A DNA stretch of 64,000 nt from Nitrospira sp. (GTDB taxonomy: Bacteria > Nitrospirota > Nitrospiria > Nitrospirales > Nitrospiraceae), in the NCBI GenBank assembly GCA_047150005.1, contig AP038806.1, positions 3,424,001 to 3,488,000 of the forward strand. Direction: 5' to 3'. The position numbers and the translations under genes were made by a program. Position 1 is the stretch's first letter, and each line of letters opens with the position of its first letter. Below are positions 1,906-43,455 of this stretch, piece by piece. Below the pieces are notes generated by a model that was not told the origin of the DNA, made no database searches, and worked only from the letters and a program-made list of their open reading frames with translations.

Positions 1906-4900
1906 TCATGAAGTGCAATCGGATGACACACCATCGGGAAATCCCTGCTTGAGGAATCCCGGCGGAGCGATCCGCCGTAAGGAAATAATTAAGGTGTTGC
2001 CGTCTAGCAGCGGGGGTGCCTGAGTGACATTTCCAGCAGGAGATTCTAGCGTTATCCCAGCCAAGGGACTGGTGAGCCACCCGCCCGGCTCGGTCGGAAG
2101 TGTGTCCCGTCCCGCAACGACGAAGCTGCTGACTTCGCCACGGGCGATCGCGGCGCAGCGCTGGCTGAGTAACGCAGTCACTTGTAACGGGGCTTTGCCG
2201 AGCGGCTGAATCTTGCCGCCGGCCGGCGCAATCGGCGCCTGGATCGTGACCGTGCCGTTCACGCCGGATTGCGAAGACGCGCTCACGACACTGGTGGCAT
2301 CCGGCAGGAAGGTGCCCCCGTTCGTAATATTGATCAAGATATTACCGCCGGGCCCCTGTTGGGCCTGGGCGAGAATCTGACTGTTTTGGAGAATGACGAA
2401 CTGCGGGTCGAGGCTCACGCTCCCGCCGCCGCCCGTGCCGTCGAGCACCGACGCGCTGATCGTGCTGTTGGACAGGTCCACCGTGCCGCTGGGATTCGTC
2501 GTGATCTTGATGATGCCGCCGCTCGATTGATTCGCCTCGGTCGTGATCGTGCTGTTGGTCATCGCGAACTGATTGCCGGCCGTGATCTGAACACTTCCCG
2601 CGTTGCCCGTTCCCGTGCTGTTGGCGGAGATGCTCGCGCCATTGGTCATGATGAACGACTGCCCGGCCGTGATCCCGATATCGCCGCCGGCTGCGCCGCC
2701 GGTTGTGCTGGTGAGAATACGGCCGCCGTTCTCGATCATCACAGTCGGGGCCGAGAGCGTAATCTGCCCCGCGTGACCGGTTGCGCCGGAGTCGCTGCTG
2801 CTGCTGATCGCCGTGGAGGATCCTGAGATGAGAGCCTGCTGAGTCGCTGCAATGGTGATCGCCCCGGCTGCCCCGGCGCCGAAGGTATCGGCGTTTATAG
2901 TGGCATGATCGGTGAGGGTGAATTGGCCGGCGTGAATGCTGATGTCTCCGGCGGTTCCGTCTGCCGCTGTCAGACTGTGGACCCGGCTGGCTCCCGAGAT
3001 CGTGACGCTCTCGGCCGAACTCCCTGGGCCATCGAGTCCCCGCAACGTGACCGTACCGCCATGACCTGAACCAGATGTGACCGCAAAGAGATCCGCACCC
3101 GCTCCTTGTGAATTAATTCGCTGACCCTCTAGGAGGATGTTCCCAGCATTTCCAGCCCCGGACGTGGACGTGCTCAGGACTGCTCCGTCGACAGTAATCG
3201 TCGGAGCTCTGAGCAGGATATTGCCGCCCAACCCGGATCCGCCTACGGTATCGGTGTTTAAAAAAGAATTCACTGCAGTGATCTGTTGGGTCGCCCGCAG
3301 GGCAATATTGCCGGCATTACCCGCCGTGTTGTCACCTGCGGAACTCAGTGCGTTGATAGTGGACAGTCCAGACAAATTGATTGTGGCGGCGTTCACCTGA
3401 ATGTCGCCTCCGTGGTTTGAGCCCGAGGTCGTGGCCGAGAGCGTGCCGCCGTCGGAGAGCGTGACGGAGTCGGCATTGACAAAGATATTGCCACCTGCGC
3501 CCGCAGCCTGGGTGTCGGTGAAGATGCCGCTGCCGGCGCCGGTGATGAGTACGGACTGGGCCGGACTGGCGAGTCCCTCAATGGTGATACTGCCGGCGTT
3601 GCCGGGGCCGCTGGTGCTGGCTGAAACTTGCGCACCCTCCGAAATGGTGACGGAATTTCCGGCTAGCAGGGTAATGTTGCCGCCGGATCCCCCGGCTGAA
3701 CTGGTCGCGAAAACTCCGCTGGGGTTGCCGTCGGCAGTTGTACCGGCGATTGCGATCTGACCCGCGCGGACCGTGATATCGCCTCCTGTTCCCGCACTAT
3801 TGGTGCTGCTATCGATGCGGCCGCCTTGGCTCAGGTTCAACGTCTCGGTGGTAATCGATGTGAGTCCGGCGTTTCCACAAGGGCCGGTGCAGAATTCGCT
3901 CTGGACGGTACGCGAATAGATGCCGCTGGCGAGGCTGGTCACAATGTCAAAGAGCGGCCCTTCGATGGCGGGAAATGGGCGCGCCCCATCGATCACGATG
4001 GTATCTGCCGCCACTGTGATGTGGCCCCCATTTCCGTTCGATGATGTACTCGCGTCAAACCGCGCCCCCCCCCGTAGTTCCAGGGCGGACGTATTGACTC
4101 TAATTTCTGCGGCATTGCCGGTACCGATGTTGGACGTCGTGAAGAGTCCGCTCGGCCTGTTCGGAGCCGCTTCCCCGGGATCATCCGAAAAGGTAAGACG
4201 CTCCGTAGCGGTAAACGTAATGTTGCCAGCGTTTCCCTCTCCAAATGTACTGCTCTGCACGGTGCTTCCATTGGTGAATCGTCCAATTCTTCCATTGAAG
4301 ATGATGCCGCCTCCACTTTCGGCGACGGTGGTGGTGTCGATCTGTGATTCATCCAGGGAGAGAGTATCCGCAGTGATTCGGACTGTGCCGCTTCTTATTC
4401 TTCCAGAGGATGAGAGGGCGCTGCTCTTCGTGAGCTGAACATCCCGGCCTGAAATGGTGATATCACCGCCTCGGCCGGCGAAGAAGCCGTCTGTCACCAG
4501 AAACGCATCGGTCAGCTGTATGGTCTCGGCATTCACGGTCAGATTGCCGCCTGACCCAGCCGCTTCCTCGAATAAATTGTTTGCGACAAAATCACCCGTA
4601 TTGATACTGGCGTGCTGGATGTCGATATTCTTGGCAGTCAGCGTCACATTGCCTCCGTGACCTCCTGCCGGCCCGATCGTGCCGCTGTCGATGAAGAAGA
4701 TAATCCCGGATTGATCGCTCGATGCCGCGATGGTGTCCGTCGCCGTAATGGTGACGTCCCCGGCTTTGCCGGCACCGGACGTATGTGTGTCAATGACGGG
4801 GACGACGAAGTTGTCGACCGCCGAACCTGCTACGTTCAGATTTTGTGATGTGATGCGGATTTCCCCGGCGTCGCCTGAACCGGTGGTTCTTGCGGTGAGA

Positions 4901-5928
4901 GCCGGAACGTCCACGGTCGAGACAGACACATCCCCCGTCGCATGAATATCGATGGCAATCGGCGCACCATTGCCAGTGCCGGTGTCGACGGCGATCGACG
5001 CATGGTCTATCACTAGCTGGCCACCTCGAATACGAACGGTTCCCGCCGAGTCGGCCGAAACGTCGAGCAACGTCCCTTGGGTAAGACTTACATTCCCTCT
5101 TGTCATGCCCGCGGCGGGCATGAAATCGACGGACGTAACTTCGCCTGCCGCAGCCACGCTTGCGATATTGATCTGCCCGCTCGGCGCAGACAACCTGCCG
5201 GACTGGATGGTGACATTTCCCCCGACCAATGAAATGCCGGTTCCGTCTGATACCGTCAGATGACTGCCCTGGATCGCAATCGCGGCGGGGTTCGAGCCAA
5301 GAAATCCAAACGCAGCGACGTTGGCAGTTGTGAGAACACTATTGCTCGCAGGATTGGCGTAAAACACCCCCGCCACACCATTGCTTTCGGCAAACTTCAG
5401 ATAATCGGCCGTCGTGAAGGTCGCCATCCCGCCGATGTTTAAGGTTGCAGTCGGGCCGAAAATCACGCCAGCGGGATTCATGAGAAAGAGATTGGCTCCG
5501 GGATAGTAGGTGGCGCTGTCGATCGCGCCGAAAATGCTGGACGGACTGCCACCGGTCACCCGACTGAGGATGTTGCTCATGCTCGAATTGACCGAGAGAT
5601 TGTTCGTTTGAAACTGCGCGATATCACCGGAGCCGACGCTGAATTGATTGAAGCTGTGAAAGAGGTTGCTCCCTACCGTCTGGCCCCCCTTGATGCCGTA
5701 GACATTGCCGCTCGAGGTCACTTGGGTCCCGAGGTCACCTGCGCCGGTCGTGCGCGTGATGGAGGATGCCGCCTCGGCAAGCGTGCCTAGACTTTCAGGG
5801 TGCGAGATTGCTATAGAAAAGAAGAGCCCTGCGCTGACCACGCGGACGGCACAAGTCACCACATATGAGGACGCAAGCGACAGCCGGGTTGCCCTTCTCG
5901 CTTCAGGCAGGAAGTTCCTGAGTTTCAT
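1906..5928 (-). CDS. Filamentous hemagglutinin family / TpsA-like protein 1 (1340 aa)
   Basis: Signal peptide; TPS domain (NLFHSF, NILSRVTGG, NPAG); G/S/T-rich beta-helix repeats; C-terminal LLSQRC..SSFVVAGRDTLP.EPGGWL.SPL domain. Confidence 0.92.
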   Translation of the reverse strand: MKLRNFLPEARRATRLSLASSYVVTCAVRVVSAGLFFSIAISHPESLGTLAEAASSITRTTGAGDLGTQVTSSGNVYGIKGGQTVGSNLFHSFNQFSVGSGDIAQFQTNNLSVNSSMSNILSRVTGGSPSSIFGAIDSATYYPGANLFLMNPAGVIFGPTATLNIGGMATFTTADYLKFAESNGVAGVFYANPASNSVLTTANVAAFGFLGSNPAAIAIQGSHLTVSDGTGISLVGGNVTIQSGRLSAPSGQINIASVAAAGEVTSVDFMPAAGMTRGNVSLTQGTLLDVSADSAGTVRIRGGQLVIDHASIAVDTGTGNGAPIAIDIHATGDVSVSTVDVPALTARTTGSGDAGEIRITSQNLNVAGSAVDNFVVPVIDTHTSGAGKAGDVTITATDTIAASSDQSGIIFFIDSGTIGPAGGHGGNVTLTAKNIDIQHASINTGDFVANNLFEEAAGSGGNLTVNAETIQLTDAFLVTDGFFAGRGGDITISGRDVQLTKSSALSSSGRIRSGTVRITADTLSLDESQIDTTTVAESGGGIIFNGRIGRFTNGSTVQSSTFGEGNAGNITFTATERLTFSDDPGEAAPNRPSGLFTTSNIGTGNAAEIRVNTSALELRGGARFDASTSSNGNGGHITVAADTIVIDGARPFPAIEGPLFDIVTSLASGIYSRTVQSEFCTGPCGNAGLTSITTETLNLSQGGRIDSSTNSAGTGGDITVRAGQIAIAGTTADGNPSGVFATSSAGGSGGNITLLAGNSVTISEGAQVSASTSGPGNAGSITIEGLASPAQSVLITGAGSGIFTDTQAAGAGGNIFVNADSVTLSDGGTLSATTSGSNHGGDIQVNAATINLSGLSTINALSSAGDNTAGNAGNIALRATQQITAVNSFLNTDTVGGSGLGGNILLRAPTITVDGAVLSTSTSGAGNAGNILLEGQRINSQGAGADLFAVTSGSGHGGTVTLRGLDGPGSSAESVTISGASRVHSLTAADGTAGDISIHAGQFTLTDHATINADTFGAGAAGAITIAATQQALISGSSTAISSSSDSGATGHAGQITLSAPTVMIENGGRILTSTTGGAAGGDIGITAGQSFIMTNGASISANSTGTGNAGSVQITAGNQFAMTNSTITTEANQSSGGIIKITTNPSGTVDLSNSTISASVLDGTGGGGSVSLDPQFVILQNSQILAQAQQGPGGNILINITNGGTFLPDATSVVSASSQSGVNGTVTIQAPIAPAGGKIQPLGKAPLQVTALLSQRCAAIARGEVSSFVVAGRDTLPTEPGGWLTSPLAGITLESPAGNVTQAPPLLDGNTLIISLRRIAPPGFLKQGFPDGVSSDCTS

Positions 5929-5944
5929 ACTTCACCCTCATGGT

Positions 5945-6349
5945 TCACATACAAGCACAATCACACCGACCGTTATCCTTATTCCAGGTGGTCTTACAAG
6001 TCTTGTTGGGGTAGAAGCTGCAGTTAGCCTGACCGGGGTTGGTGCACTTCTTATTTTGTCCACCGGTCCAGGTGCACTTCTCGGTGCCCGGCAGGCTTTC
6101 CAGCGTATCGCCGGTGGGTTGACCAGAATTGTTGATGACCACGGAGTTGCTTGGAGCGTCGCTATTCACCGCCACGTCGGTCTTTTGGCAGGGAGCCCCA
6201 GGTTCTTCCGACCCACCGGGCTTTGCTTCACCACAGTTCACCATCACTGATTGCGTAATGGGACTATGGCACCCTTGGAGGGCAATGAGGAAAGCTACGG
6301 CTACTGTCCAGCGGACCATGCCAACTATTCGGACGGGGACGCTCTTCAT
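5945..6349 (-). CDS. Cys-rich lipoprotein A (9 Cys after the lipobox, C-terminal GRCDCAC)
   Basis: Hydrophobic signal ending in LQGC; GGAGG RBS; paralogs at 21883 and 32215. Confidence 0.8.
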   Translation of the reverse strand: MKSVPVRIVGMVRWTVAVAFLIALQGCHSPITQSVMVNCGEAKPGGSEEPGAPCQKTDVAVNSDAPSNSVVINNSGQPTGDTLESLPGTEKCTWTGGQNKKCTNPGQANCSFYPNKTCKTTWNKDNGRCDCACM

Positions 6350-6398: not shown

Positions 6399-7136
6399 TT
6401 ATCCCGGATTGTGCTCATCATGGGCCCTCGCTTGTTGGGCAAGTAGCGCGAACACCACCGCGGCTTCCACTGGGACCCCTTCCGTCAACCCGTACAATTG
6501 CCTCGTCGCCAACGGTGTCAACTTGAGAGTTTCATCGGGATGATCGCCCAAGAAGTGTAGGTTCAGAACGGGGAACCAGACCACGAAATCCGAGTCTGAC
6601 TTCTTATGACGCATCACCAATGTGATGAGTTGTTGCAGCCCGTAAGCCGTGGTTGTGAAATCCTGCGTTTCCATAACGCGCGACACGACCAGAGACGAGC
6701 GGACTTGACCCGCGACGCTCAAGGGATAGAGACGAGATTCAAGCTGACTGATCAAAGGAGCGACTTTATCCCCAGGCTTGTACTCACGTATTCGGGTGAG
6801 ACCGATGGTATAGATATCAATCGGCTTGCCAATGTGAACGTTTGAGGCATCCTCCACTTTATCGAAACCGAGAAGCTTTGAGTTGGCGGAGTTAATCAGC
6901 GACTTGAATTTGGAACATCCTTCCAATGCTTTCATATTCCACTTTTTCAAATCTTCCGTAGGTGGCGATTGACCCGTCGTAGCCGTAAGCGGCGACGGTG
7001 GTGTGACGGCCGTGGAGCCGGGGGAAGGGACTTGTCCTGGACCAGGCAGGCACGGCACAGGCTGTGCCGACGCGTATGAACCAATCTGGCCCATCAGGAT
7101 TCCCAGAACAAAGATCATCATTCGCACGGTACGCAT
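6399..7136 (-). CDS. Secreted protease-partner protein
   Basis: Signal peptide; homologous to 22357..23076 (LGF; YP/FP..G.VR.S..V; F.V..P.L...FLG; A..VF..L). Confidence 0.8.
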   Translation of the reverse strand: MRTVRMMIFVLGILMGQIGSYASAQPVPCLPGPGQVPSPGSTAVTPPSPLTATTGQSPPTEDLKKWNMKALEGCSKFKSLINSANSKLLGFDKVEDASNVHIGKPIDIYTIGLTRIREYKPGDKVAPLISQLESRLYPLSVAGQVRSSLVVSRVMETQDFTTTAYGLQQLITLVMRHKKSDSDFVVWFPVLNLHFLGDHPDETLKLTPLATRQLYGLTEGVPVEAAVVFALLAQQARAHDEHNPG

Positions 7137-7157
7137 GCCGGCATCCCTCCTCAAGTC

Positions 7158-7790
7158 TCACCTTGCAATGTCGTAGTAGGTTCTCCAATGTTCATAGGAC
7201 CCATCCGCCGCTACACCGAATAAATGTTTGAATTTCAGAATGGCAGGGCCACGGAATCCATCGGGGTCAATCACCAACACGAACTGTTCGCCATCTTCGT
7301 CAAGTTGGTAACCGATCACCGTCCCCATATGGCCCCCACCCGAAACGAATTTAATGGCAACGGCAAGGGGGAGACCACTGTCGATCTGCGCTACAACCTG
7401 ATCCCAGCTCAAAGGTCGGCTTGTCTGCTTGGACTGAAATCCATAGCGCTCAAAATGAGGCCAGCCCGAACGATTGCAAAGCGGACTCTCAGGGTCATCG
7501 CAACAGGTCGAAGGGTCGCTTTTCCCCGGAAAGCTGTCATCGGCCTGGATGCATTGAAGCCACTGAGGTTGCCCATGGAATGTCATGATCATGTCCGCAG
7601 TGGCTGCCCAACACCAACGGTCGCTCTTTTGCTTTTTGAAAAACCTCGCCCCGGCATCCGGATCGTCTCCGAAGACAAATTTGTAATACAACGGACGCTC
7701 ATTTTCGGGGGTTGCCGGCTGTCCGAGGGCATGGGAACCCCCTAAGAGCACGGCGACTGTCACGAGGCCTGCGCAAGTCTTTCGCATCAT
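7158..7790 (-). CDS. Secreted papain-like cysteine protease (C39-like / C70 AvrRpt2-like)
   Basis: Signal peptide; QKSDRWCWAA (Gln, Cys), GGGHMGTVIGY (His), VIDP (Asp). Confidence 0.85.
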   Translation of the reverse strand: MMRKTCAGLVTVAVLLGGSHALGQPATPENERPLYYKFVFGDDPDAGARFFKKQKSDRWCWAATADMIMTFHGQPQWLQCIQADDSFPGKSDPSTCCDDPESPLCNRSGWPHFERYGFQSKQTSRPLSWDQVVAQIDSGLPLAVAIKFVSGGGHMGTVIGYQLDEDGEQFVLVIDPDGFRGPAILKFKHLFGVAADGSYEHWRTYYDIAR

Positions 7791-8267: not shown

Positions 8268-8608
8268 GATTGCCTCGGTGACGATTCGGTTCACTGCTGC
8301 CCTCGCGAGAGTGCAATGGGTAGACCAATGAGAGATTTGACGCGAGTCAACGGCAGGTGAAGCGTGAGATCGCAGTGTGGACAATGAGATCTGCCGGTGC
8401 GGGGATTCACAGCATGGCGACAGAAGGATCTAGCGCGATCAGGCCGAAAGGACCTAAAAGCATTCGCGATGGATCGAAAGTGATTCAGTAGACAAGGTCG
8501 CGATAGTGGGATGAGAAAAGCCTCAATACGGGAGACTGGAGATCGAGGGGTTAAGAAACCCCGTGTATGCCTGACAGCCAGCCACGTGGCAATTCGAATT
8601 TCTGGATG

Positions 8609-18555: not shown

Positions 18556-18581
18556 TTGAACACTCGCCCGGCGTCTTCGGT

Positions 18582-22320: not shown

Positions 22321-22356
22321 CAAATCCTCCCTGGGTAGAGCACCCTGATCGCCGTG

Positions 22357-23076: not shown

Positions 23077-23086
23077 AGTGGGCACC

Positions 23087-24768: not shown

Positions 24769-25029
24769 GGTCGCCTCGCTGACGATTCGGTTCACTGCTG
24801 CCATCGCGAGGTTGCAATGGGTAGGCCAATGCGAGTGTTGGCGCGAGTCAGCGGCAGGTGAAGCGTGAGATCGCAGTGTGGACAAGGAGATCTGCCCATG
24901 CGGGGATTCAGAGCATGGCGACAGAAGGATCTAGCGTGATCAGGCCGAAAGGACCTAAAAGCATTCGCGATGGATCGAAAGTGATTCAGGTCGCGTTTCC
25001 TCCGATTCAGGCGCTGCAGCAAGGTTGGC

Positions 25030-32214: not shown

Positions 32215-32556
32215 CTACATGCACTTGCAATCACAGCGTCCAGGGCCAGGGCTCGGGTTGGGATTTAACTTACACTTGCCACTCGGGGTTGCGACATCGC
32301 TGCATGCAGCATTGAGGCTGTTGCAAACCCACGAATCATTGGAAGGTGACCATGTCGTGCAATTCGGATAGTTTGCTGCATCGCTAGGCCATTGTCCCAT
32401 TTTATGTTTATAGCAATTGCCCTCACCGAGAATCCCACTGACATTCTCACAGCTGCCGTCTACTACCTGCACCTTGAGGGGGCACCCTTGGAGCATTAAG
32501 GCTACGAACACAAAAGCCGTTAGGCTCATCAGCTTGTAAAGTGGCCGCGAACTCAT
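32215..32556 (-). CDS. Cys-rich lipoprotein C
   Basis: AGGAGG RBS, LQGC lipobox, 9 further Cys, ends GRCDCKCM. Confidence 0.82.
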   Translation of the reverse strand: MSSRPLYKLMSLTAFVFVALMLQGCPLKVQVVDGSCENVSGILGEGNCYKHKMGQWPSDAANYPNCTTWSPSNDSWVCNSLNAACSDVATPSGKCKLNPNPSPGPGRCDCKCM

Positions 32557-34207: not shown

Positions 34208-35140
34208 CTAACGAATTGTAACCCCATGGGGGGCCGCCGGGGGCGTAGTATCTGCACTCCCACTGCAGCCAATACGTGTCGTACCGATGGCGAATTGATC
34301 GAGATATACAATCCCTGTCCCTGTCTGTTTGAGAATTTGAATTGAGTTGAAGGTAGAAAGCGATGAGTTGCCATTTGGTCCAATCGGCGAACTTCCACGT
34401 ATACGGAAGTTTGTATATGCCAGAGTCAAAACCCCATTCACCCATAATTGCACTATTGCATTGGCACTGCCTGGAGTATTCAGGGTTGTTTGAGTTTCTA
34501 CGCAATACCATTGGTCGTCGGTGATATTTACGGTCGCGAGATTCGGAGTGACAGGCAAGGTTGCATAACAATTCTGGATGGAGCCAGGACAATCTTGCCC
34601 AACGAGGATCTCAAGAGTCATAGCTCGTGACCCAGGGCCCGAGTGGAGGGCAACCACCCCTACATCTCCTAAATAAAAATGATTGGTCGCGTTCTGGCTG
34701 TAGGTGAAACCGTGGGTACGATAATAAAAACGAGTGAAGAGAGTTGGGTCGGTCTGAGGGAACGAGCGGATAATAGCTATATTATGATTATCATTGTACT
34801 CGACGGCATCGTAGACGAGTTTGAGAGAATGTGTGCCGCTATGCGCTATGTCGGTTGAGATATCAAGATACGGACACGGACTACCATTACACGCGTATTG
34901 TAAGTAATTCCATCTTCCTGCGAGTGGGTTTTCAAAGTCATCATCCCAGTAAACCGTGGCATGGGCATCTCTGGCACAGACGATACCGAGAGTGAAAAGA
35001 AAAAGGACAGTCAGAAGTTGTATTACCTTTCGATATGAAAAAGGTGTCAGGAACCGAATCGAGTTCTTTCGAACGGGCGACGGAACTGATTGCTGAGCAG
35101 GAGGTGAGGGACGACTATTCCGGTGAAGGTGAAGCGTCAT
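34208..35140 (-). CDS. Secreted ConA/LamG jelly-roll (polysaccharide-lyase-like) protein
   Basis: YWDDDFE, AHSGTHSLKL, QWYCVE, QLWVNG, YLDQFAIGTTRIGC; function inferred from fold motifs. Confidence 0.7.
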   Translation of the reverse strand: MTLHLHRNSRPSPPAQQSVPSPVRKNSIRFLTPFSYRKVIQLLTVLFLFTLGIVCARDAHATVYWDDDFENPLAGRWNYLQYACNGSPCPYLDISTDIAHSGTHSLKLVYDAVEYNDNHNIAIIRSFPQTDPTLFTRFYYRTHGFTYSQNATNHFYLGDVGVVALHSGPGSRAMTLEILVGQDCPGSIQNCYATLPVTPNLATVNITDDQWYCVETQTTLNTPGSANAIVQLWVNGVLTLAYTNFRIRGSSPIGPNGNSSLSTFNSIQILKQTGTGIVYLDQFAIGTTRIGCSGSADTTPPAAPHGVTIR

Positions 35141-35668: not shown

Positions 35669-35755
35669 CTAGTCCTGCCAGATGATCTCGACGACGATGT
35701 AGACCAGCGCTGCCATCAGAGCGTTGACGAGGAACAAGCTCATTCCGATGTCCAT
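35669..35755 (-). CDS. 28-aa TM peptide, copy 3
   Basis: Identical to copy 2. Confidence 0.7.
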   Translation of the reverse strand: MDIGMSLFLVNALMAALVYIVVEIIWQD

Positions 35756-36000
35756 GGTCGCCTCGCTGACGATTCGGTTCACTGCTGCCATCGCGAGGTT
35801 GCAATGGGTAGGCCAATGCGAGTGTTGGCGCGAGTCAGCGGCAGGTGAAGCGTGAGATCGCAGTGTGGACAAGGAGATCTGCCCATGCGGGGATTCAGAG
35901 CATGGCGACAGAAGGATCTAGCGTGATCAGGCCGAAAGGACCTAAAAGCATTCGCGATGGATCGAAAGTGATTCAGGTCGCGTTGACCTTCCCCCCTTTA

Positions 36001-36798
36001 TTACACCAAAGCTGAGGAAGTTAGCTCCTGTGTCGGCTGGGCCTGGTTTTGATAGTTGGTAATGAACTCCTGGGGTGTCACATCCCCAATTGCGCTATGC
36101 GTCCGGTCTTCGTTGTATTCCCGTCGCCACGCTTCACTCACGACCTGCGCTTCCTGCAGCGTCACAAACCAATGCTCGTTGAGACATTCATCCCGAAACT
36201 TACCATTGAAGCTCTCGATAAACGCGTTCTGCACCGGCTTCCCTGGCTGAATGAAGTGCAGATGCACGCCGTGCTGCGCCGCCCAGGCATCGAGCGCCGT
36301 CCCCGCGAATTCTGGGCCGTTATCCAGGATCAGCGTCTCGGGCAGCGGGCGAGTGAGAAACACCCGATCGAGAATCCGGCACACTCGTGCCCCACCGATC
36401 GACACCTCGACCTCAATCACCGGGACCTCTTTCGAACACGGATCGGTCATCGTCAAACATTTATACCGTCGTCCGGTCACCAATCGGTCGTGCACAAAAT
36501 CCAGGGCATAACAGCGCCCCGGCTGTGTCGGCCGGGGGAGCGCGACGCGCGGCACCGCGGCGAATTTCTTCCGTCGACGCCGGCGTAACGACAGGCCTTC
36601 GTCCCCATAATAAATCCGTTCCACTTTCTTATGGTTCGCACGCCAGCCCTCGCGCCGTAAGCGCACATAGATCCGGGGACAGCCGTACCGCCGCTTGGTC
36701 TCGGCAATCTCGCGGATCCGGGTCCGCAGCGCCTCATCGTCGTGGCGACGACTCCGATACCGAAGCGTCTGGCGATCGAGGGCCAAGAGCCGGCACAT
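36001..36798 (-). CDS. IS3 OrfB transposase
   Basis: [36 protein letters not shown]. Confidence 0.9.
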
Positions 36799-36863
36799 CC
36801 GTCGTTGACTGAGCCCAAAGCGCTCGGTGCTCCACTGAGCCGCCGCTCGCTTCGCCTTGGGCC

Positions 36864-37130
36864 CTACCAGTTTTTTGCGTTGACCGCTTTCAGCGCCTGG
36901 ATGTCCAGGGCTTGGTCTGCCACCATCTGCTTGAGCCGCCGGTTTTCGTCTTCCAGCTGGCGGAGCTTCTTCACATCACTAACTTCGAGCCCGGCATATT
37001 TCGCCCGCCACTTATAAAACGTGGCGTCCGAGATGCCGTGTTTGCGGCAGAGCTCCTGAATGCCTGTGCCCGCCTGGGCATCCTTGAGTACCGCAATGAT
37101 CTGTTCCTCCGTGTGCCGCTTTCGTGTCAT
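36864..37130 (-). CDS. IS3 OrfA
   Basis: [16 protein letters not shown]...; A AAA AAC slippery site. Confidence 0.9.
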
Positions 37131-37205
37131 GGCCCCCTCCTGTGGGGCCCATCTCAGCACAGGTGCACTTCCTTGCCAATGGTCTAGTTTTCAGGGGGAA
37201 GGTCA

Positions 37206-38173
37206 GGATGGCATTGTCCGTGTACGATGTCGTCATACTGGCAACGGTTGTCAGGACAGGAAGTGGTGCCGCGCTTGCACACTGGCTATCCTGGCCGCGA
37301 TAGATCTTGAAACCAGTGATGTTTGTACTGGATCCGGTCCAGTTCAACATTCCAGGATTCACGGGATTGAATGTCAGAGCCCCAGCACAGCCAATGCGAT
37401 CTGGTCCGACGGCGAATTGGTCAAAATATACAACCCCACTACCTCCCGCTTGCTTATAGAGTTGGACCACATTAAATCCAGAGAACGATGGGTTATCATA
37501 CGTTCCACTCACTGACCTCCCCCGCATGCTGAAGTTCGTGTACTCGAAAGTCCTAACTCCGTTCACCCACATATTTATCCTGGCATCCTCCGTACTATCC
37601 GGACTGTTCATGGTAATTTCCGTTTCAATGCAATACCATTGATCGTCAATAAAATTGACTATTGCCGCATTCGGTTTTGCGGTCCAGTCAGCAAAACATT
37701 CCACTTGCACGAAGAAGCAAGCCTCACCGTTCTGAACACCGATAGCGAACACATTCGAAGAAGTGTCAACAATCGGTTTTACAATTATTGTGGTCGGGGA
37801 ATAATGAGTCAGATCGGCCTGCTTGAAGAGAGTGATTACTGGTTCAGAGGTAGAGGCGTGGGTGCGATAATAAAAGCGGCTGAACAATGTCGAGGTAGCC
37901 GTGGCTGAGCCAGTCTGAGGGATAGCACGGCTGATCGCGACGTCAAATAGATTATCAGGAAAGGCAGTATCGTAGACTAGTTTCAGTGAATGCGTGCCGC
38001 TATGAGCGACATCTGTCGATATTCCCAGATCAGGACAGGGAGTGACCGACGGAGGGTTATTGGCACACAAAGCTTTTTGAGAGTAGACCCATCTACCTGC
38101 TTGAGTGATCGGAATTTCGAAATCATCCTCCCAGTACACTGCGGCAAAACCAGACCTGCTGAAGACAATGACA
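37206..38173 (-). pseudogene. Main fragment of a jelly-roll/lyase-like plus FN3 gene, paralog of 34208; 5' pieces at 39014..39033 and 41432..41471
   Basis: YWEDDFE, AHSGTHSLKLVYD, DDQWYCIE, YFDQFAVG.DRIGC, then FN3-like GFKIYRG...TTSYTD. Confidence 0.85.
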
Positions 38174-39013
38174 CTAGAACCTATCTCAAAATGGTTGTGC
38201 TCATCAGAAAAGTGCCTATAATGCGCCCGCATGTTGCGCCTGCGCGACGACCAATGGGAGCGGATTCGGGAACATTTTCCCGAGGAACACATTCCCGAAG
38301 GCCGGCCCGGCCGCAAACCCGTGCCCGCCCGCGCGGTCTTGGAGGCCGTGCTGTGGATTCTGAACACCGGGGCGCAGTGGCACATGCTGCCGCAGTGCTA
38401 TCCCAACTACAAAACGGTTCATCGCCGATTTCAGCAGTGGTGCGAACGCGAGGTGCTGCGCGAGATTCTCACGCAGTTGGCGAATACGCTGCGCGACGAG
38501 GGCGCCATCGACGAGCGCGAGAGTTTCATCGACGCGACGTTCGCGGCCGCCAAGGGCGGGGGCGACGCGGTGGGGCTCACGAAACGCGGCAAAGGCGTGA
38601 AGATCCTGGCGATTGTGGATCGTCATGGGTTGCCGCTCTCGGTCAGTACGCACGCGGCCAATCATCATGAGGTCACATTGGTCCAACTCAGTTTCGACTT
38701 CTACATGCTGGAGGCCAAGCCCGAGCATCTCATCGGCGATCGGGCCTATGACAGCGATGGGCTCGATGACGACCTCAAGCAAGGCGGCGTGAACCTGATC
38801 GCGCCGCACCGGTCCACCCGCAAACTCAAGACCCAGGACGGGCGCCACTTGCGCCGGTACCAACGCCGCTGGCTCGTCGAACGGTTCTTTGCGTGGCTCC
38901 AATGGAAGCGGCGGTTACTCGTACGTTGGGAATATTACGCCTCAAACTTCCTGGGGTTTGTGCAGCTCGCATCGATTACCATGCTCCTAAAGCAATTTTG
39001 AGATAGGTTCTAG
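38174..39013 (+). mobile_element. IS5-family element in a CTAG target
   Basis: ctagaacctatctcaaaat ... attttgagataggttctag. Confidence 0.93.
38231..39001 (+). CDS. IS5-family transposase
   Basis: LRDDQWERI, TGAQW..LP, IDAT, GDRAYD, RWLVERFFAWL. Confidence 0.93.
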   Translation: MLRLRDDQWERIREHFPEEHIPEGRPGRKPVPARAVLEAVLWILNTGAQWHMLPQCYPNYKTVHRRFQQWCEREVLREILTQLANTLRDEGAIDERESFIDATFAAAKGGGDAVGLTKRGKGVKILAIVDRHGLPLSVSTHAANHHEVTLVQLSFDFYMLEAKPEHLIGDRAYDSDGLDDDLKQGGVNLIAPHRSTRKLKTQDGRHLRRYQRRWLVERFFAWLQWKRRLLVRWEYYASNFLGFVQLASITMLLKQF

Positions 39014-39080
39014 AAAGGAAGAGAACAGTAAGATGTATAACTCACGACTTCATCTGACAGACAGCGAGTCCTCACCGGGT

Positions 39081-39800
39081 TTAGGCCGCTAACATTTTCT
39101 CCTTGGCCAGTGGCACACTATCGAGAAACGTCTGCATCGGTGTCTTGCCATAGCACCAGCGCCCTTGGTGGGGGCGCTGCTCGTTGTACTCCTGGATCCA
39201 CGCATCCAAGTCAGCCTGGAGGTCCTCCAGCGTTCGATAGATCTTCTTGCGGAGCGCCACGCGGTAAAACTCGTTCAACATGGTCTTGTGGAACCGTTCA
39301 CAGATCCCGTTGGTCTGGGGATGCCGCGTCTTGGTGCGCGTATGATCGATGTTCTCCACGGCCAGATAGAGTTCGTACTCATGGCGCTCCGGAGTTCCAC
39401 AGTATTCCGTGCCGCGATCCGTGAGCACACGGTTCAGCGGAATGGCATGCTGCTCGAAGAACGGCAAGACCCGATCATTGAGCAATTCCGCGGCCGTCAC
39501 CGGCGTCTTGCGGTCGTACAGCTTCGCAAATCCCACCTTGCTGTAGGTATCGATGAAGGTTTGCTGGTAGATGCGGCCGACGCCCTTCAAGGTGCCGACG
39601 TAGAACGTATCCTGCGCGCCGCAGTAGCCGGGACATTCGCTCTCAAATTCGCCGTGGGCCTCTTTGTCCGCCGTCGCCTTCTCCAGCGCCACGACTTGGG
39701 CCTCGGTAAGCACCAGTCCCGCTTGGGCTACCTTCGCTTCCAGTGCCTTTAAGCGTTTCCGCATCGTTGCGAGATCATGGCGGAGCCAGATACAGCGCAC
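39081..39800 (-). pseudogene. IS481 transposase, 3' fragment
   Basis: [41 protein letters not shown]. Confidence 0.88.
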
Positions 39801-39869
39801 GTATCCTGCTCCCCTTGAAATTGAGACCACCTCTACGACATGGTCCTACGACGGACCGAGGAGGTGGCG

Positions 39870-40196
39870 ATGGCAGCAGAAGCAGCAGAACCCATTGAAC
39901 GGTGGACGGCCAAGCGACGCGTGGCATTGGTCGTGAGTAATCTGAAGGGTGAGACCTCGGTGGCCGAGGCGGCCCGGCAGCACGGCCTGACCGTGGCGGA
40001 GGTGGAGGCGTGGCGTGAGAAGTTTCTCCTCGGCGCCGAGAACGCGCTCCGGACTCGGCCCAAGGACGAGGAGGCCGTGAAGGACGAGCAGATCAAGAAG
40101 CTGAAACAGAAGATCGGGGATCTGGTCGTGGACAACGACATCTTACGGGAGGCCTTGAAACCCTTCCCTTTGGACCGGAAGACATCCGACGCGTGA
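39870..40196 (+). CDS. IS3 OrfA (DUF1153-like HTH)
   Basis: RWTAKRRVALV...AEAARQHGLT.AEVEAW; GAGGAGG RBS. Confidence 0.85.
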   Translation: MAAEAAEPIERWTAKRRVALVVSNLKGETSVAEAARQHGLTVAEVEAWREKFLLGAENALRTRPKDEEAVKDEQIKKLKQKIGDLVVDNDILREALKPFPLDRKTSDA

Positions 40197-41026
40197 GAGC
40201 CCGCGTGTCGGGTGTCTCCGAGCGACGGAGTTGCCAGGTGCTCCGCGTGAACCGAGCCGGTCTGCATCGGACGAGAGCAACGGAGGGACGACGCCGAGGC
40301 CCCACGGCACCCCCGTGGCTGGAGCGGATGCGGTATTGGATTCAGCAGCATCCCACGTTTGGGTATCGCCGACTCTGGGTGATGTTGCGGTATCAGGATG
40401 GGATCCTGGTGAATCGCAAAGCCGTGTATCGCGTGCTGAAGCAGCAGGGCTGGTTCGTCCACCAACGCGTGGCGACCCCGCGCCCTCGGGTGCGAGGCTG
40501 GCGCAGTCGGGCTGGGCAGAGCAATGAACGGTGGGCGATGGACGTGACGCATATTCCCTGTGGCCAGGACGGCTGGGCCCATCTCGCGGCCGTGATCGAC
40601 TGTCACGATCGGGAAGTCATCGGCTACGAGTTCGCGTTGCGCAGTCGGGCCAAGGAGGCGGAGCGGGCCGTCGAAGCGGCGTGCCTGCAGCGGTTCGGGA
40701 CGTTGCGGCCTACGGGCGCACCGGTCCTCCGCAGTGACAACGGCCTGATCTTCCAGAGTCGCCGGTTTCGACAAGCCTGTCGGGACTATCGGCTCCAACA
40801 GGAATTCATTACGCCCTATACGCCGGAACAGAACGGCATCATCGAGCGGTTCTTCCGGAGTCTGAAGGAGGAGTGCGTCTGGCAACACACGTTCCAGACG
40901 TTTGAGGAGGCGCGACGGATCATTCGGGACTGGCTCCACTGGTACAACGAGGGACGACCGCACAGCGCCTTGGCGTATCGGAGTCCCGTCCAATTCCGCG
41001 CGCAACAGTCAACCCAGGTGGCTTGA
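40193..41026 (+). CDS. IS3 OrfB transposase
   Basis: [32 protein letters not shown]. Confidence 0.9.
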
Positions 41027-41044
41027 TTTCAGGGGAGCACTACA

Positions 41045-41362
41045 CACGCCCGCTGGGGAGATGGACAGCGCCTGCTTGCGCAGTTCATTCGCCACGCGGG
41101 CTTGTCCCCACGCGGGTTGCTCAATAGCGATCTGCACGATGGCCTGTTCCACCTCGGGTGCCACCCGATTCTTGAGGAGCGGCTTCTGCCGCGAAATCTC
41201 TTGAAGCGCGGCCTCGCCGCCGGTCTCGTAGAGTTCCTTGAATCGATAGAAACTATCGCGGCTATACCCCATCAGCTGGCAGGCTTTGGAGACATTGCCG
41301 AGCTGCTTCGCCAGTTCCAGCACGCCGACTTTCGTCTTAATGATCTTTTGTTCCGTCGTCAT
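41045..41362 (-). pseudogene. IS481 transposase, 5' fragment
   Basis: [31 protein letters not shown]. Confidence 0.88.
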
Positions 41363-41539: not shown

Positions 41540-41583
41540 TAGCTATTCCGATTGGTCCATTTCCACAATAACCCTTTCGGCTA
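41540..41583 (-). promoter_or_regulatory. Module promoter, copy 4
   Basis: TAACCCTTTCGGCTA plus TTGTGG-17-TAGCTA. Confidence 0.55.
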
Positions 41584-41779
41584 GGGGCGATGGCCTCTGC
41601 TCCTCCATCTCTAGCTGTAGCAGTAAGATCTCCGTGTCACCCCACAGCTTGTAAAAGCCGTATTATCTGGTTCGTCTCGTTTGTGCGGTCTGTCTTACTT
41701 CATCCTCATTCAGCATCGACTCCGTTCATAGCTCAGGACGCTGCACTCAGCACGCAGCACTCAGAGCTCATCACTGCTT
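41566..41779. repeat. Copy of 7965..8178
   Basis: Direct comparison. Confidence 0.9.
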
Positions 41780-41783
41780 ATCT

Positions 41784-41870
41784 CTACTCCTGCCAGATGA
41801 TCCCGACGACGATATAGATTAGCGCCGCCATCACTGCATTCGCCAAGAATAAGATTACGCCGATGTCCAT
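41784..41870 (-). CDS. 28-aa TM peptide, copy 4 (MDIGVILFLANAVMAALIYIVVGIIWQE)
   Basis: GGAGG RBS; conservative substitutions. Confidence 0.72.
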   Translation of the reverse strand: MDIGVILFLANAVMAALIYIVVGIIWQE

Positions 41871-42155
41871 GAGAGCCTCCGTTGCCGATTGGGGTTGCTG
41901 CTGCACGTAGCGAACTGCAATCAGTAGGCCAGGAGAAATCCCAGAAAGCTCCGCCTGTATTGCACGTGCGTGACTGCAGTGAAGACAAGGCAATCCGTCG
42001 ATGACGATCGAATGAATGAAGATGGAACGACCCTATGTTTCAGGCCGAATGGGCTCTAAAAGAGTTCGGGATGAATCAAAAGAGATTCAGAGAGGGACGC
42101 CGATTTGTAGATTCCCAGAAGCGGGACGGTTTCCAACAAGAAGAGAGGCTGTCCC

Positions 42156-43247: not shown

Positions 43248-43365
43248 AGAGTTCTGAGTTTTAAGTGCTGAGTGTCGGTCATGATGTAGAGGATATGTAT
43301 CCTGTTCCAGAAGGGGACCACACTCCGCCCACTCAGGACTCAACACTGAGGACTCAGGACTCCGT
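43248..43365. repeat. Degenerate heptamer repeats (actcagg / tgagtgc) in inverted arrangement
   Basis: gagttctgagttttaagtgctgagt ... actcaggactcaacactgaggactcaggactc. Confidence 0.5.
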
Positions 43366-43368
43366 CCA

Positions 43369-43455
43369 TCAGTCCTGCCAGATCTTGGTAATCACAATGT
43401 AGATGAGGACGGCCATCAGTGTATTGCTGAGGATTAGGATCACTGCGAAGTCCAT
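43369..43455 (-). CDS. 28-aa TM peptide, copy 5 (MDFAVILILSNTLMAVLIYIVITKIWQD)
   Basis: AAGGAG RBS; same length and MD..N..MA..YIV..IWQ pattern. Confidence 0.72.
   Translation of the reverse strand: MDFAVILILSNTLMAVLIYIVITKIWQD

Follow-up and report, generated by a model that had tools for sequence, protein, structure and literature searches.

A Nitrospira two-partner secretion locus with cassettes of TpsA, protease and cysteine-rich lipoprotein genes

Accessory proteins act on TpsA proteins in several two-partner (type Vb) secretion systems. According to the part of PMC5422565 that covers these systems, SphB1 releases FHA, LapG cuts the periplasmic tail of CdrA, a C-terminal disulfide loop anchors HMW1 and HxuA, and BcpO, a small predicted lipoprotein encoded in a TPS operon, is required for TpsA function. 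Cassettes that pair a TpsA filament with its own, predicted latent protease and a Cys-rich lipoprotein are undescribed for well-studied two-partner secretion. Literature searches found no published description of such an architecture, in agreement with the novelty asserted in an earlier note on this DNA. The new elements here are the protease slot, the Cys-rich lipoprotein and the sigma-54 head.

We analyzed a 64,000-nt stretch of DNA (the window) from a Nitrospira-type genome, that of a nitrite oxidiser. Our reading, held tentatively and with a little less than even confidence for the cassette and processing proposal as a whole, is that the cassettes in the window make up the upstream, variable half of a single long two-partner secretion locus.

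Cassettes, heads and the downstream core

The window contains three complete cassettes, all on the minus strand, and two additional heads (Table 1). Each cassette opens with a sigma-54-type element and a gene for a 28-aa membrane peptide, continues with a protease slot and a 9-Cys lipoprotein gene, and closes with one to three TpsA genes; the slot holds either a C70/C39-like cysteine peptidase and its partner or an S8 subtilase and a jelly-roll protein. The protease, lipoprotein and TpsA genes are closely packed, with intergenic gaps of 3–121 nt. One putative inhibitory module accompanies each exported protease, a cis prodomain in the S8 subtilase versus a separate partner for the C70-like peptidase. 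ORF boundaries and Pfam domains confirmed the threefold minus-strand module that the earlier note had described, with TpsA genes ending at 1906, 11280 and 28104. The fourth head, which it had called wrecked by IS elements, is indeed followed, after its leader, by IS3-, IS5- and IS481-type elements.

The five peptide ORFs start at 8267, 24768, 35755, 41870 and 43455 of the minus strand, and their sole invariant upstream block is a sigma-54-type -24/-12 element. TGGC-N6-ATTGC matches 8 sites in the window (0.79 expected), with 4 of the 8 in heads, while head 1 carries a one-base variant (TGGT). This element also precedes the peptide gene at three loci of other genomes (L040, L079 and L083), and head 5 is syntenic in L083. 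About 300 nt of head DNA are 92% identical across modules 1–3, and the module 4 leader is 99% identical to that of module 1. Across the peptide ORFs the Shine-Dalgarno sequence is conserved and differences are concentrated at third codon positions; the rest of the genome holds no further copies. The peptide is hydrophobic and contains no cysteine in its five window copies, contrary to its earlier description as Cys-rich; the Cys-rich cassette products are therefore the lipoproteins. The genome carries a single rpoN gene and encodes 25 enhancer-binding proteins, of which one adjoins the locus. Because of these components and the elements at all five heads, the cassettes may well be co-regulated, a proposal of the earlier note that holds at the level of sequence.

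TpsB lies 1–3 kb past the left edge of the window. Downstream, the cassettes are followed by one TpsB gene, a gene for an exported, caspase-like TPR-CHAT protease and two DUF928 genes, a core that the earlier note lacks. It is surrounded by a REC-PAS protein, a histidine kinase and a sigma-54 activator. The order of this core is kept elsewhere: CHAT follows 33 of the 35 TpsB genes with sufficient downstream DNA, and DUF928 follows 28 of 30 CHAT genes. Consequently, the cassettes form an array that feeds one two-partner secretion core. An IS30-type element, with a full copy (HTH_38 and rve) in L004, now parts module 1 from TpsB. The two small ORFs between TpsA and TpsB matched no protein family.

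Table 1. Positions of features in the window
Feature	Position	Strand	Basis or remark
IS30-type transposase gene, cut by window edge	3..944	+	rve domain
Two small ORFs (115 and 102 aa) between TpsA and TpsB	1110..1823	-	Same place in L035, L042, L043, L079
Module 1 TpsA, 1340 aa	1906..5928	-	TPS domain E 3.8e-37
Module 1 9-Cys lipoprotein	5945..6349	-	Lipobox, CxCxC end; model pLDDT 80.5
Module 1 partner, predicted trans inhibitor/prodomain	6399..7154	-	Model pLDDT 80.8
Module 1 exported C70/C39-like cysteine peptidase	7158..7790	-	Pfam PF12385 E 2.6e-6, PF13529 E 4.1e-6
Module 1 head peptide, 28 aa	8181..8267	-	Five window copies, conserved Shine-Dalgarno
Module 1 sigma-54-type element, TGGT variant	8313..8327	-	Upstream block invariance
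Module 2 TpsA 3, 991 aa	11280..14255	-	TPS domain E 1.9e-40
Module 2 TpsA 2, 1414 aa as listed	14422..18666	-	TPS domain E 8.8e-37
Module 2 TpsA 1, 1059 aa as listed	18582..21761	-	TPS domain E 1.6e-34
Module 2 9-Cys lipoprotein	21883..22323	-	HMM E 1.1e-37
Module 2 partner	22357..23205	-	Partner family alignment, 20–21% identity
Module 2 C70-like peptidase	23087..23857	-	Weak Pfam match E 1.8e-3; catalytic Cys, His, Asp align
Jelly-roll gene-start remnant in module 2 leader	24037..24153	-	tblastn 74% over 39 aa, module 3 jelly-roll query
Module 2 head peptide	24682..24768	-	ORF copy match
Module 2 sigma-54-type element	24814..24828	-	Pattern search
Module 3 TpsA, 1346 aa	28104..32144	-	TPS domain E 4.9e-37
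Module 3 9-Cys lipoprotein	32215..32556	-	HMM E 7.7e-26
Module 3 S8 subtilase with N-terminal prodomain	32641..34134	-	PF00082 E 7e-46, PF22148 E 3.2e-7
Module 3 jelly-roll (PL14-like) protein	34208..35140	-	Weak PF21294 match E 2.1e-4, below cut-off
Module 3 head peptide	35669..35755	-	ORF copy match
Module 3 sigma-54-type element	35801..35815	-	Pattern search
IS block: IS3-type x2, IS5-type, split IS481-like	36001..41362	.	Pfam transposase domains
Jelly-roll remnant inside IS block	37363-38169		tblastn
Module 4 head and leader	41563..41931	-	Element 41917-41931, peptide 41784-41870
Module 5 head	43369..43537	-	Element 43523-43537, peptide 43369-43455; cassette absent behind
GAF histidine kinase directly upstream of head 5	43859..46081	-	Pfam GAF, HisKA, HATPase_c

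Proteins of the cassettes

The module 1 peptidase matches Peptidase_C70/C39_2 with 27.8 bits (cut-off 19), and its C60, H154 and D175 are invariant in an alignment of 10 sequences; the module 3 subtilase carries Asp, His and Ser motifs. Both the peptidase and the partner have signal peptides. The module 1 partner belongs to no family in Pfam or NCBIfam and has no sequence similarity to any PDB chain. In module 2, the true start of the partner probably lies downstream of the listed 23205. Multimer structure prediction, which the earlier note had suggested, placed the partner on the peptidase's catalytic Cys and His with an ipSAE of 0.86, compared to 0.01 for the best control; 116 of 157 solved complexes and 2 of 215 mismatched pairs attain that mark. 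The runs had a contact agreement of at least 97% and a partner pLDDT of at least 88, and the modeled interface spans peptidase residues 54, 57–61 and 150–155, including C60 and H154. The partner model weakly resembles the prostaphopain B proregion (Z 5.9, 121 aligned, rmsd 3.9) and, also weakly, the cystatins (Z 5.1–6.1), and fold searches pointed the same way (prostaphopain/cystatin-like; Foldseek rank 2, E 0.04; Atlas lead 0.82). From these models, the partner probably restrains the peptidase in trans, as an inhibitor or a prodomain.

All five large ORFs have a Pfam TPS domain (E 1.6e-34 to 1.9e-40). Their TPS and C-terminal domains are conserved and their centers are variable; pairs are 43–67% identical, with conserved ends and mosaic tracts, a pattern that favors the polymorphism proposed earlier. 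The C-terminal domain, about 200 aa long, is alike whichever protease class accompanies it, and thus gives no sign of protease-specific recognition. Across seven compared TpsA proteins, two conserved cysteines lie within the last ~85 aa, spaced ~80 residues apart. TAAG, the cleavage site of LapG, is found at a single position in the five TpsA proteins, residue 361 of the third TpsA of module 2, outside the C-terminal tail. Each of the three lipoproteins carries an LQGC lipobox, has exactly nine cysteines after it and ends in CxCxC; a search with their HMM gave no match in 24 genomes of the same genus and 16 of the same order. Among PDB chains, Spatzle and coagulogen alone reach a Z of at least 2 against the lipoprotein model (Z 2.1–2.7); both are cleaved by dedicated proteases.

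The jelly-roll gene has paralogues at 37363-38169 and at two further genome sites (tblastn). Its remnant in the module 2 leader falls in a 949-nt tract that is 98.3% identical between modules 2 and 3, and the 3′ 1632 nt of the module 3 TpsA share 92% identity with the TpsA of module 1. Because of the mosaic tracts and this remnant, we propose that cassettes may be shuffled by recombination at the shared heads and the conserved TpsA ends.

Recurrence elsewhere and competing explanations

The cassette order recurs in other Nitrospiraceae genomes. On genome contigs, 27 of 56 array-leading TpsA genes are immediately preceded by a small ORF encoding 8 or more Cys (25 of 54 without two duplicated loci), an approximately eightfold enrichment over the 5.7% background at random positions. 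This bears out the link between lipoprotein and TpsA drawn in the earlier note. The strict lipobox-plus-CxCxC pattern was found 10 times on the TpsA strand, always 106–412 nt upstream of the TPS domain, and never on the opposite strand. Protease genes lie upstream of TpsA at about 22 of 54 loci (S8 at 12, C70 with partner at 8, and M10-like and S53-prodomain at 1 each), so the slot does appear swappable, as had been claimed. In metagenome contigs, the peptidase precedes the partner at 9 of 9 loci with upstream DNA, the lipoprotein is next at 4 of 4 close loci, and TpsA is next in both that are long enough.

In the mechanism that we propose, the cassettes would be alternative, co-regulated sets of a surface filament and its processing enzyme. 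The shared TpsB would export TpsA, which the two-Cys C-terminal domain would retain. The peptidase would be latent, since the modeled partner covers its catalytic Cys and His and has a weakly cystatin- and staphopain-prodomain-like fold. Once freed from its inhibitor or prodomain, the cassette protease would trim or release its own TpsA or, alternatively, act on the lipoprotein through a disordered linker. The Cys-rich lipoprotein, located at the outer membrane, would be a per-operon accessory of TpsA.

Alternatively, the proteases and Cys-rich proteins may be independent exported products, for matrix remodeling, protein foraging or antagonism, that share an island and a regulator with TpsA and do not act on it. 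We consider this explanation unlikely, though it is the strongest of the alternatives. The peptidase–partner pair occurs without TpsA or lipoprotein nearby at L005 in this genome and at five distant metagenome loci (L014, L016-L019); the pair can thus exist independently, and its presence here may be simple co-location. Partner-like clusters are widespread in other phyla, and non-protease genes, among them GMC oxidoreductase and FGE-sulfatase-like genes, occupy the slot at other loci. About half of the array-leading TpsA genes have no accessory (29 of 56 have no Cys-rich ORF and mostly no protease upstream), and the genome's second TPS-CHAT locus, L006, has no accessory genes at all, so the accessories are dispensable for this TpsA family. 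However, the gene order is conserved and the spacing tight, proteases of several unrelated classes turn up at one and the same place, immediately before the Cys-rich gene and TpsA, and the Cys-rich ORF is enriched as given above; these observations speak against independent cargo.

The same components could also form an envelope signaling system, where the TpsA–TpsB–CHAT–DUF928 core senses a surface event, a protease cut in the lipoprotein or TpsA is the signal, and the cassette promoters receive feedback through the neighboring kinase and sigma-54 activator. The regulators flanking the core, the elements at the heads, a CheY-like receiver after the peptide gene in L040 and L079, and the lipoprotein model's resemblance to Spatzle and coagulogen are all consistent with such signaling, but those Z scores are too low to carry weight, DUF928 here has no fused sensor domain, and proximity is what ties the kinase and activator to the promoters; we regard it as rather improbable. 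Least probable of all, and by our estimate a slim prospect, is that the head is a selfish or stabilizing element whose peptide gene, type I toxin-like or a leader, spread with its promoter and is unrelated to the cassettes. The small hydrophobic ORF is present five times with a conserved 5′ region, once (module 5) without a cassette behind it, and the island abounds in type II toxin–antitoxin pairs, as would suit such an element; yet the peptide is always on the cassette strand, right behind the sigma-54 element and ahead of the cassette, it is syntenic at the head of a TPS locus in three other genomes, and no antisense RNA family or terminator was detected.

Comparison with described systems

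The modeled peptidase–partner pair would resemble staphopain and its proregion, staphostatin and the cystatins, where a papain-like protease is restrained by a dedicated helix-plus-sheet protein, although here the peptidase is C70/C39-like rather than C47 and the fold matches are weak. The two conserved C-terminal cysteines are similar to those of Haemophilus HMW1/HMW1B and HxuA, as outlined in a section of PMC5422565, and would fit a disulfide-closed periplasmic plug; unlike HMW1 and HxuA, their spacing is ~80 residues rather than that of a short loop, and both disulfide and retention are predicted. P. aeruginosa CdrA/CdrB offers a parallel: its TpsA adhesin is held by a periplasmic C-terminal tail until a cysteine protease sets it free, according to the relevant portion of PMC5422565. 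LapG, however, is under c-di-GMP control and encoded away from the TPS operon, whereas the Nitrospira peptidase is C70/C39-like and encoded within the putative operon beside its predicted inhibitor, and the single TAAG is not in the C-terminal tail.

Burkholderia BcpAIOB likewise encodes a small predicted lipoprotein in its TPS operon, as stated in part of PMC5422565. BcpO sits between an immunity gene and the transporter of a toxin-delivery system, while the Nitrospira locus has no polymorphic toxin end or immunity gene and its lipoprotein is Cys-rich and upstream of TpsA. In Bordetella FhaB/FhaC, a TpsA filament is also exported via TpsB, the subtilisin-type SphB1 frees the mature protein, and periplasmic proteases (CtpA and DegP) work on the C-terminal part, as described in portions of PMC5422565, PMC6070651 and PMC8263021. 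No Cys-rich lipoprotein, CHAT or DUF928 partner accompanies FhaB. Unlike FhaB, the Nitrospira TpsA proteins have a short, conserved C-terminal domain, and their protease genes sit within the cassettes and vary in class.

Gene order of the cassettes and the downstream core

Three complete cassettes occupy the minus strand, as delimited by ORF calling and Pfam families, together with two further heads that lack an intact cassette. Each head consists of a sigma-54-type element and a 28-aa peptide gene, and is followed by a slot for a protease. The gene content and order, the export signals, the intact catalytic residues and the common promoter element are read directly from the sequence; the intergenic spacing inside the cassettes is 3-121 nt. 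The earlier note had described a minus-strand gene order repeated three times, with a fourth head broken by IS elements. Its coordinates are exact for both peptide starts and TpsA ends, the ORFs and Pfam families bear out the repetition, and the leader of head 4 indeed runs into IS elements of three types.

Positions of the features discussed, in window coordinates unless prefixed by G000 (the Nitrospira sp. genome) or by an L-number (a locus in G000, a metagenome or a GTDB genome contig)
Feature	Position	Strand	Remarks
Module 1	8327 to 1906	-	head, peptide, peptidase, partner, lipoprotein, one TpsA
Module 1 28-aa ORF	8267-8181	-	
Module 1 C70/C39-like cysteine peptidase	7790-7158	-	Pfam
Module 1 partner	7154-6399	-	
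Module 1 small lipoprotein	6349-5945	-	
Module 1 TpsA	5928-1906	-	TPS domain
Module 2	24828 to 11280	-	module 1 order, with three tandem TpsA genes
Module 3	35815 to 28104	-	jelly-roll protein and S8 subtilase in place of peptidase and partner
Head 4	41931-41784	-	leader, then IS3-, IS5- and IS481-type elements
Head 5	43537-43369	-	
Jelly-roll remnant near module 4	37363-38169		
147-aa ORF in module 2 and 3 leaders	24234-24677 and 35221-35664		
115-aa and 102-aa ORFs	1110-1823	-	
TpsB	G000 3421286-3423103	-	PF03865 E 9.7e-24 (ShlB barrel), PF08479 E 3.5e-23 (POTRA_2)
Enhancer-binding protein gene	G000 3408304-3408804		beside HAMP-GAF histidine kinase
Tract common to modules 1 and 3	2059-3690, 28263-29894		TpsA 3' half
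Orphan TpsA 3'-end fragments	8637-8711, 27135-27309		between cassettes
Type II toxin-antitoxin genes	8567-11292, 27656-27994, 42156-43008		Pfam
Operon-like row	46124-57164	-	
FadL-type outer-membrane transporter	55599-57092	-	
Patatin-like protein	53057-55537	-	
1771-aa fusion	47735-53050	-	animal-haem-peroxidase domain, many predicted membrane helices, lipoxygenase domain
RoxA-like cytochrome c	46124-47722	-	
Sigma-54-type element TGGC-N6-ATTGC	57150-57164	-	upstream of FadL gene
Head peptide gene, then CheY-like receiver	L040:1419-1949, L079:3475-3987		
Third peptidase-partner pair (L005)	G000 3599115-3600406		
Conserved ~180-nt noncoding element	L021:3151-3330		
Proline-rich tail	34208-34260; L021:7000-7048; L033, L062, L081, L087		
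Second Cys-rich type	L024:7003-7413, L026:6379-6804, L049, L050, L058, L088		

All five large ORFs contain a PF05860 TPS domain (E 1.6e-34 to 1.9e-40), and TIGR01901 is found in the module 1 TpsA, the one of the five that was scanned for it. Just downstream of module 1, on the same strand, follow 115-aa and 102-aa ORFs, an IS30-type element, TpsB, TPR-CHAT and two DUF928 genes; the TpsB gene lies outside the window and the IS30 element separates it from module 1. The TPR-CHAT protein (776 aa) carries a signal peptide, and its His/Cys dyad is intact, in the motifs HIATHG and LSACQTG. A second locus in the same genome, L006, carries TpsA, TpsB and TPR-CHAT without accessory genes. Scanning GTDB genome contigs with the TpsA C-terminal domain yielded 73 loci, nearly all labelled Nitrospira or Nitrospiraceae, and core conservation was assessed within that family: CHAT follows 33 of the 35 TpsB genes having enough downstream DNA, and DUF928 follows 28 of 30 CHAT genes. 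Consequently, the cassettes in the window form the variable upstream half of a conserved TpsA-TpsB-CHAT-DUF928 locus. The 115-aa and 102-aa proteins have no signal peptides and match no Pfam or NCBIfam family; both also stand between the last TpsA and TpsB in L035, L042, L043 and L079, and the 102-aa protein additionally occurs in L038 and L039.

A conserved TpsA C-terminal domain of ~200 aa, with two Cys located ~85 residues and three residues from the end, is present in all seven TpsA compared (five from the window, that of L006 and one metagenome protein). Contact-dependent inhibition (CdiA/CdiI, BcpA) was considered and rejected: the five TpsA contain no VENN or ELYN, Pfam shows the TPS domain only, and the C-terminal 200 aa are not variable, being the most conserved part of the protein (69-77% identity). 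Also rejected as evidence was the C-terminal LPxxPGGW stretch, considered as a possible AvrRpt2-type cleavage site, because the S8 cassette's TpsA has it equally, as do TpsA 2 and TpsA 3 of module 2.

TpsA pairs share 43-67% identity overall. Modules 1 and 3 have a 1632-nt tract in common at 92%, and a 949-nt stretch of head and leader matches at 98.3% between modules 2 and 3. Over ~300 nt, the heads of modules 1, 2 and 3 agree at 92%; the leader behind head 4 and the module 1 leader are 99% identical. A jelly-roll gene has left its first 39 codons in the module 2 leader, and therefore the C70-type slot of module 2 replaced an S8-type one. Orphan TpsA 3'-end fragments, the second of which matches the module 3 TpsA end at 94% identity, were probably left behind by earlier recombination. 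Between the cassettes lie IS elements and type II toxin-antitoxin genes: RHH with PIN, MazE-like with PIN, Phd with PIN, a MazF-like toxin, and a DUF6036 nucleotidyltransferase next to a 113-aa protein. Farther along the minus strand lies an operon-like row of genes, pieces of which (FadL, peroxidase, RoxA-like, GMC oxidoreductase) flank the TPS locus in other Nitrospiraceae too.

Sigma-54-type elements and the head peptide

The 28-aa ORF is preceded by a GAGG Shine-Dalgarno in all five copies, and no further copy exists in the genome outside the window. The copies differ mostly at third codon positions; between copies 1 and 4, there are 6, 3 and 12 differences at codon positions 1, 2 and 3. 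The module 1 peptide, MDIGMSLFLANTLMAALVYIVIEIIWQA, is hydrophobic and Cys-free; the Cys-rich products of the cassettes are the lipoproteins. An NCBIfam search with the peptide returned no family.

Upstream of the five peptide copies, the sole invariant block is TGG(C/T)-N6-ATTGC, a -24 GG / -12 GC element with sigma-54 spacing, which reads TGGC in heads 2-5 and TGGT in head 1. The exact TGGC-N6-ATTGC form occurs 8 times in the window, compared to 0.79 expected, and four of the eight are in heads 2-5. A sigma-70 consensus scan of two heads returned no sites, an Rfam scan of the window returned no family at gathering scores, and a single, weak terminator-like hairpin was seen upstream of head 1. 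Three other Nitrospiraceae genomes have a homologous peptide gene preceded by a -24/-12-type element, located 75-79 nt from the peptide start codon in L040 and L079 (TGGCAT-N5-TTGC) and 50 nt from it in L083. The G000 genome encodes one rpoN and 25 enhancer-binding proteins (PF00158). By sequence, the invariant element, its recurrence in other genomes and the presence of rpoN and its activators make a well-supported case for the heads as predicted sigma-54-dependent promoters. A promoter shared across the modules, as the earlier note had it, is thus represented by a -24/-12 sigma-54-type element at all five heads. One enhancer-binding gene lies beside a HAMP-GAF histidine kinase, ~9 kb past the DUF928 genes, and its product may be the activator that serves the heads.

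At L040 and L079, the gene after the head peptide encodes a single-domain CheY-like receiver. The receiver's position behind the peptide gene suggests that the peptide may be part of a regulatory unit that opens the locus.

Slot proteases, their partner and the Cys-rich proteins

The module 1 peptidase matches PF12385 (27.8 bits, cut-off 19) and PF13529 (27.9 bits, cut-off 24), and the module 2 peptidase falls just below threshold (18.6 bits, cut-off 19). Across 10 aligned peptidase sequences, C60, H154 and D175 are invariant and the oxyanion Q54 is nearly so. The module 3 subtilase (PF00082, E 7e-46) has a Fervidolysin-type N-terminal prodomain and the triad motifs DSGID at 184, HGTGVAG at 223 and GTSMA at 434. 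A PDB sequence search gave no match for the peptidase, the jelly-roll protein or the 838-aa slot protein of L040.

In ~40% of the related Nitrospiraceae loci, a protease gene lies just upstream of a Cys-rich protein and TpsA. Same-strand S8 subtilases of several sizes are found upstream of TpsA in L021 (two copies), L022, L033, L051, L052, L054, L055, L078, L081, L086 and L087, and in L040 by cluster membership only. The C70-like peptidase and partner take this position in L023, L053, L063, L065, L067, L069, L070 and L082, and likewise in L027, L030 and L080, whose contigs have short upstream DNA. Upstream of TpsA, L077 has one matrixin-like gene (24.8 bits, cut-off 24) and L060 has one pro-kumamolisin activation domain. 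The slot classes in related loci are S8 and C70 with its putative inhibitor, and probably M10 and S53; the interchangeable slot claimed from the window alone therefore recurs across related loci.

A conserved noncoding element of ~180 nt is found in L021 and ~28 other loci (73-90% identity; L013, L015, L020, L022-L024, L026, L040, L055, L070 and L081 among them), just upstream of the first slot gene, that of the protease. It was not found in G000, where the sigma-54 peptide head takes its place, and Rfam gave no family at gathering scores for L021, L023 and L015, nor for the element itself. The jelly-roll protein and several slot subtilases share a proline-rich tail, TTPP-x-AP-x3-V-R/H/Q, that resembles the first strand of a fibronectin-III domain; the jelly-roll remnant at module 4 continues into a fuller one.

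The partner, encoded just after the C70-like peptidase, has no family in Pfam or NCBIfam. Its AlphaFold model, built from 20 sequences (pLDDT 80.8), has 57 disordered N-terminal residues, followed by a long helix that packs against a curved sheet. In a VIA-align comparison against 48,161 chains, the best fold matches, all weak, are a designed cystatin fold (Z 6.1 over 71 aligned residues), the prostaphopain B proregion 1x9y_A (Z 5.9 over 121 aligned residues, rmsd 3.9) and papain-bound tarocystatin (Z 5.1). Foldseek found no match at E <=0.001 and placed 1x9y_A at rank 2 with a weak E of 0.04; the nearest named Atlas cluster, as a lead only, is Staphopain_pro (0.82).

Multimer structure prediction, proposed in the earlier note, was applied to peptidase residues 40-210 and partner residues 55-245, and the predicted complex has an ipSAE of 0.86, compared to 0.01 for the best control. 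Of 157 solved complexes, 116 score this high, as do 2 of 215 mismatched pairs, although the calibration is only rough because custom alignments were used. The runs have at least 97% contact agreement, with a partner pLDDT of at least 88. The modelled interface joins peptidase residues 54, 57-61 and 150-155 to the partner's C-terminal tail (238-245), and takes in the invariant catalytic C60 and H154. With no PDB chain resembling either protein in sequence, recall of a solved complex would be an unlikely source of the prediction. According to these models, the partner is likely a co-exported protein that would inhibit the peptidase or serve as its trans prodomain. A search of longer proteins yielded no fusion of peptidase and partner, which is weak evidence. 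Among metagenome contigs containing the partner, the peptidase precedes it in 9/9 loci with upstream DNA. In the close metagenome loci, the lipoprotein follows the partner in 4/4, and the two contigs of sufficient length (L013, L015) continue into TpsA; neither gene accompanies five pairs of lower similarity (27-31% identity). A third pair in G000, at L005, has no TpsA or lipoprotein nearby, and its neighbours are a methyltransferase and a GNAT acetyltransferase.

The three small lipoproteins of the window share only 28-32% pairwise identity, yet all carry an LQGC lipobox, exactly nine Cys after it and CxCxC at the C-terminus; their acylation is predicted. Searching 1.84 billion representatives with their profile yielded 27 proteins at E <=0.001, all of 118-162 aa, and gave no match in any of the 40 relatives searched (24 of the same genus, 16 of the same order). 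In a 37-sequence alignment, the lipobox Cys and seven others are invariant, with two more nearly so. Pfam and NCBIfam have no family for them, Atlas has no named one (best score 0.79), and Foldseek gave no match at E <=0.001. The model (pLDDT 80.5) combines a low-confidence linker (residues 36-47, below 50) with a confident beta-rich domain (residues 50-134, block means 88-97). Against the 48,161 chains, only Spatzle (2.7), coagulogen (2.3) and Spz1C (2.1) reach Z >=2, values too weak to name a fold that nevertheless offer a lead towards a cystine-knot-like arrangement.

The 73 genome loci contain 70 TpsA starts with at least 3 kb upstream, of which 14 lie behind another TpsA and 56 do not. 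A Cys-rich small ORF (<=200 aa, >=8 Cys, directly upstream of TpsA) precedes 27 of these 56 array-leading TpsA, compared to 5.7% at random positions; the 27 include two duplicates in overlapping loci (L065/L066, L053/L058), and the unique count is 25/54. The strict lipobox and CxCxC pattern has 10 matches on the TpsA strand, all 106-412 nt upstream of the TPS domain, and none on the opposite strand. The rule that a 9-Cys lipoprotein always sits directly upstream of TpsA holds for the window copies and all 10 strict matches; the broader Cys-rich ORF is found at about half of the array-leading TpsA. Linkage in other genomes, the neighbourhood check the earlier note had suggested, is seen in this enrichment and in the upstream proteases, but not in the peptidase-partner pairs without TpsA at L005 and in the five metagenome contigs. 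From the protease genes and Cys-rich ORFs upstream of TpsA across these loci, the interchangeable slot and the Cys-rich/TpsA link are read as lineage-wide yet optional features. Six loci have a different, unrelated Cys-rich type directly upstream of TpsA, whose 9-11 Cys cluster immediately behind the signal peptide and which has no CxCxC end; four of the six have a TAT-exported GMC oxidoreductase upstream.

Candidate roles and comparison with known systems

We tentatively propose, at a little under even odds, that the cassette protease matures or releases the TpsA or lipoprotein of its own cassette. Each cassette would be a single sigma-54-driven operon, its TpsA would be exported through the shared TpsB, and the two-Cys C-terminal domain would hold TpsA in the manner of HMW1 and HxuA. 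After release from its inhibitor or prodomain, the protease would mature or release TpsA or the lipoprotein, while the periplasmic CHAT protease and DUF928 would act on the common TpsA C-terminal domain. The release of FHA by SphB1 and of CdrA by LapG are precedents for a protease acting on TpsA, according to the available part of PMC5422565. Against such a dedicated role, the peptidase-partner pair exists elsewhere without TpsA, half of the related loci are without accessories, and the TpsA C-terminal domain is the same whatever the protease class. These genes might instead encode co-located but independent exoproteins, which we consider unlikely.

A signalling reading of the locus is in our judgement quite improbable. 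An elaborated form, to which we give only slight credence, makes the cassettes switchable extracellular units of proteolytic signalling or recognition: the latent protease, freed from its inhibitor, would cut the lipoprotein (taken as cystine-knot-like) in its disordered linker or TpsA at its Cys-loop anchor, and the product would be read by the shared TpsB, CHAT and DUF928 core, the nearby kinase and a sigma-54 activator that drives the heads. If true, bacteria would have an equivalent of protease-activated cystine-knot ligands, and the alternative cassettes would confer different specificities. The head could also be a selfish element encoding a type I toxin-like peptide, a minor rival that we regard as very improbable. 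Returning to processing by a dedicated protease, the varied classes across loci supply a natural set of matched triples of protease, substrate candidate and accessory protein, useful for determining how TpsA filaments are matured, tethered or shed.

Because Nitrospira form dense microcolonies in biofilms, a variable set of adhesins and proteases under predicted sigma-54 control is a plausible entry point to aggregation in nitrifying systems. The analysis also defines a small family of 9-Cys lipoproteins and gives a widespread, nameless partner family a likely role as protease inhibitor or trans prodomain. The earlier note knew of no description of this architecture, and we found none in the literature searched. 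No literature was found linking the CHAT domain with two-partner secretion or DUF928; the accessible part of PMC10811720 draws no link between these terms, the one DUF928 paper found concerns WD40 proteins in the part available, the papers found by one search do not contain 'CHAT domain', and those found by another do not contain 'Nitrospira'. As a putative inhibitor or trans prodomain, the partner of the C70-like peptidase would be the counterpart of the cis prodomain that the S8 subtilase carries. Two-partner secretion is a textbook pathway, and what is new for it here is a protease slot, a 9-Cys lipoprotein family, an inhibitor-like partner and a sigma-54 peptide head.
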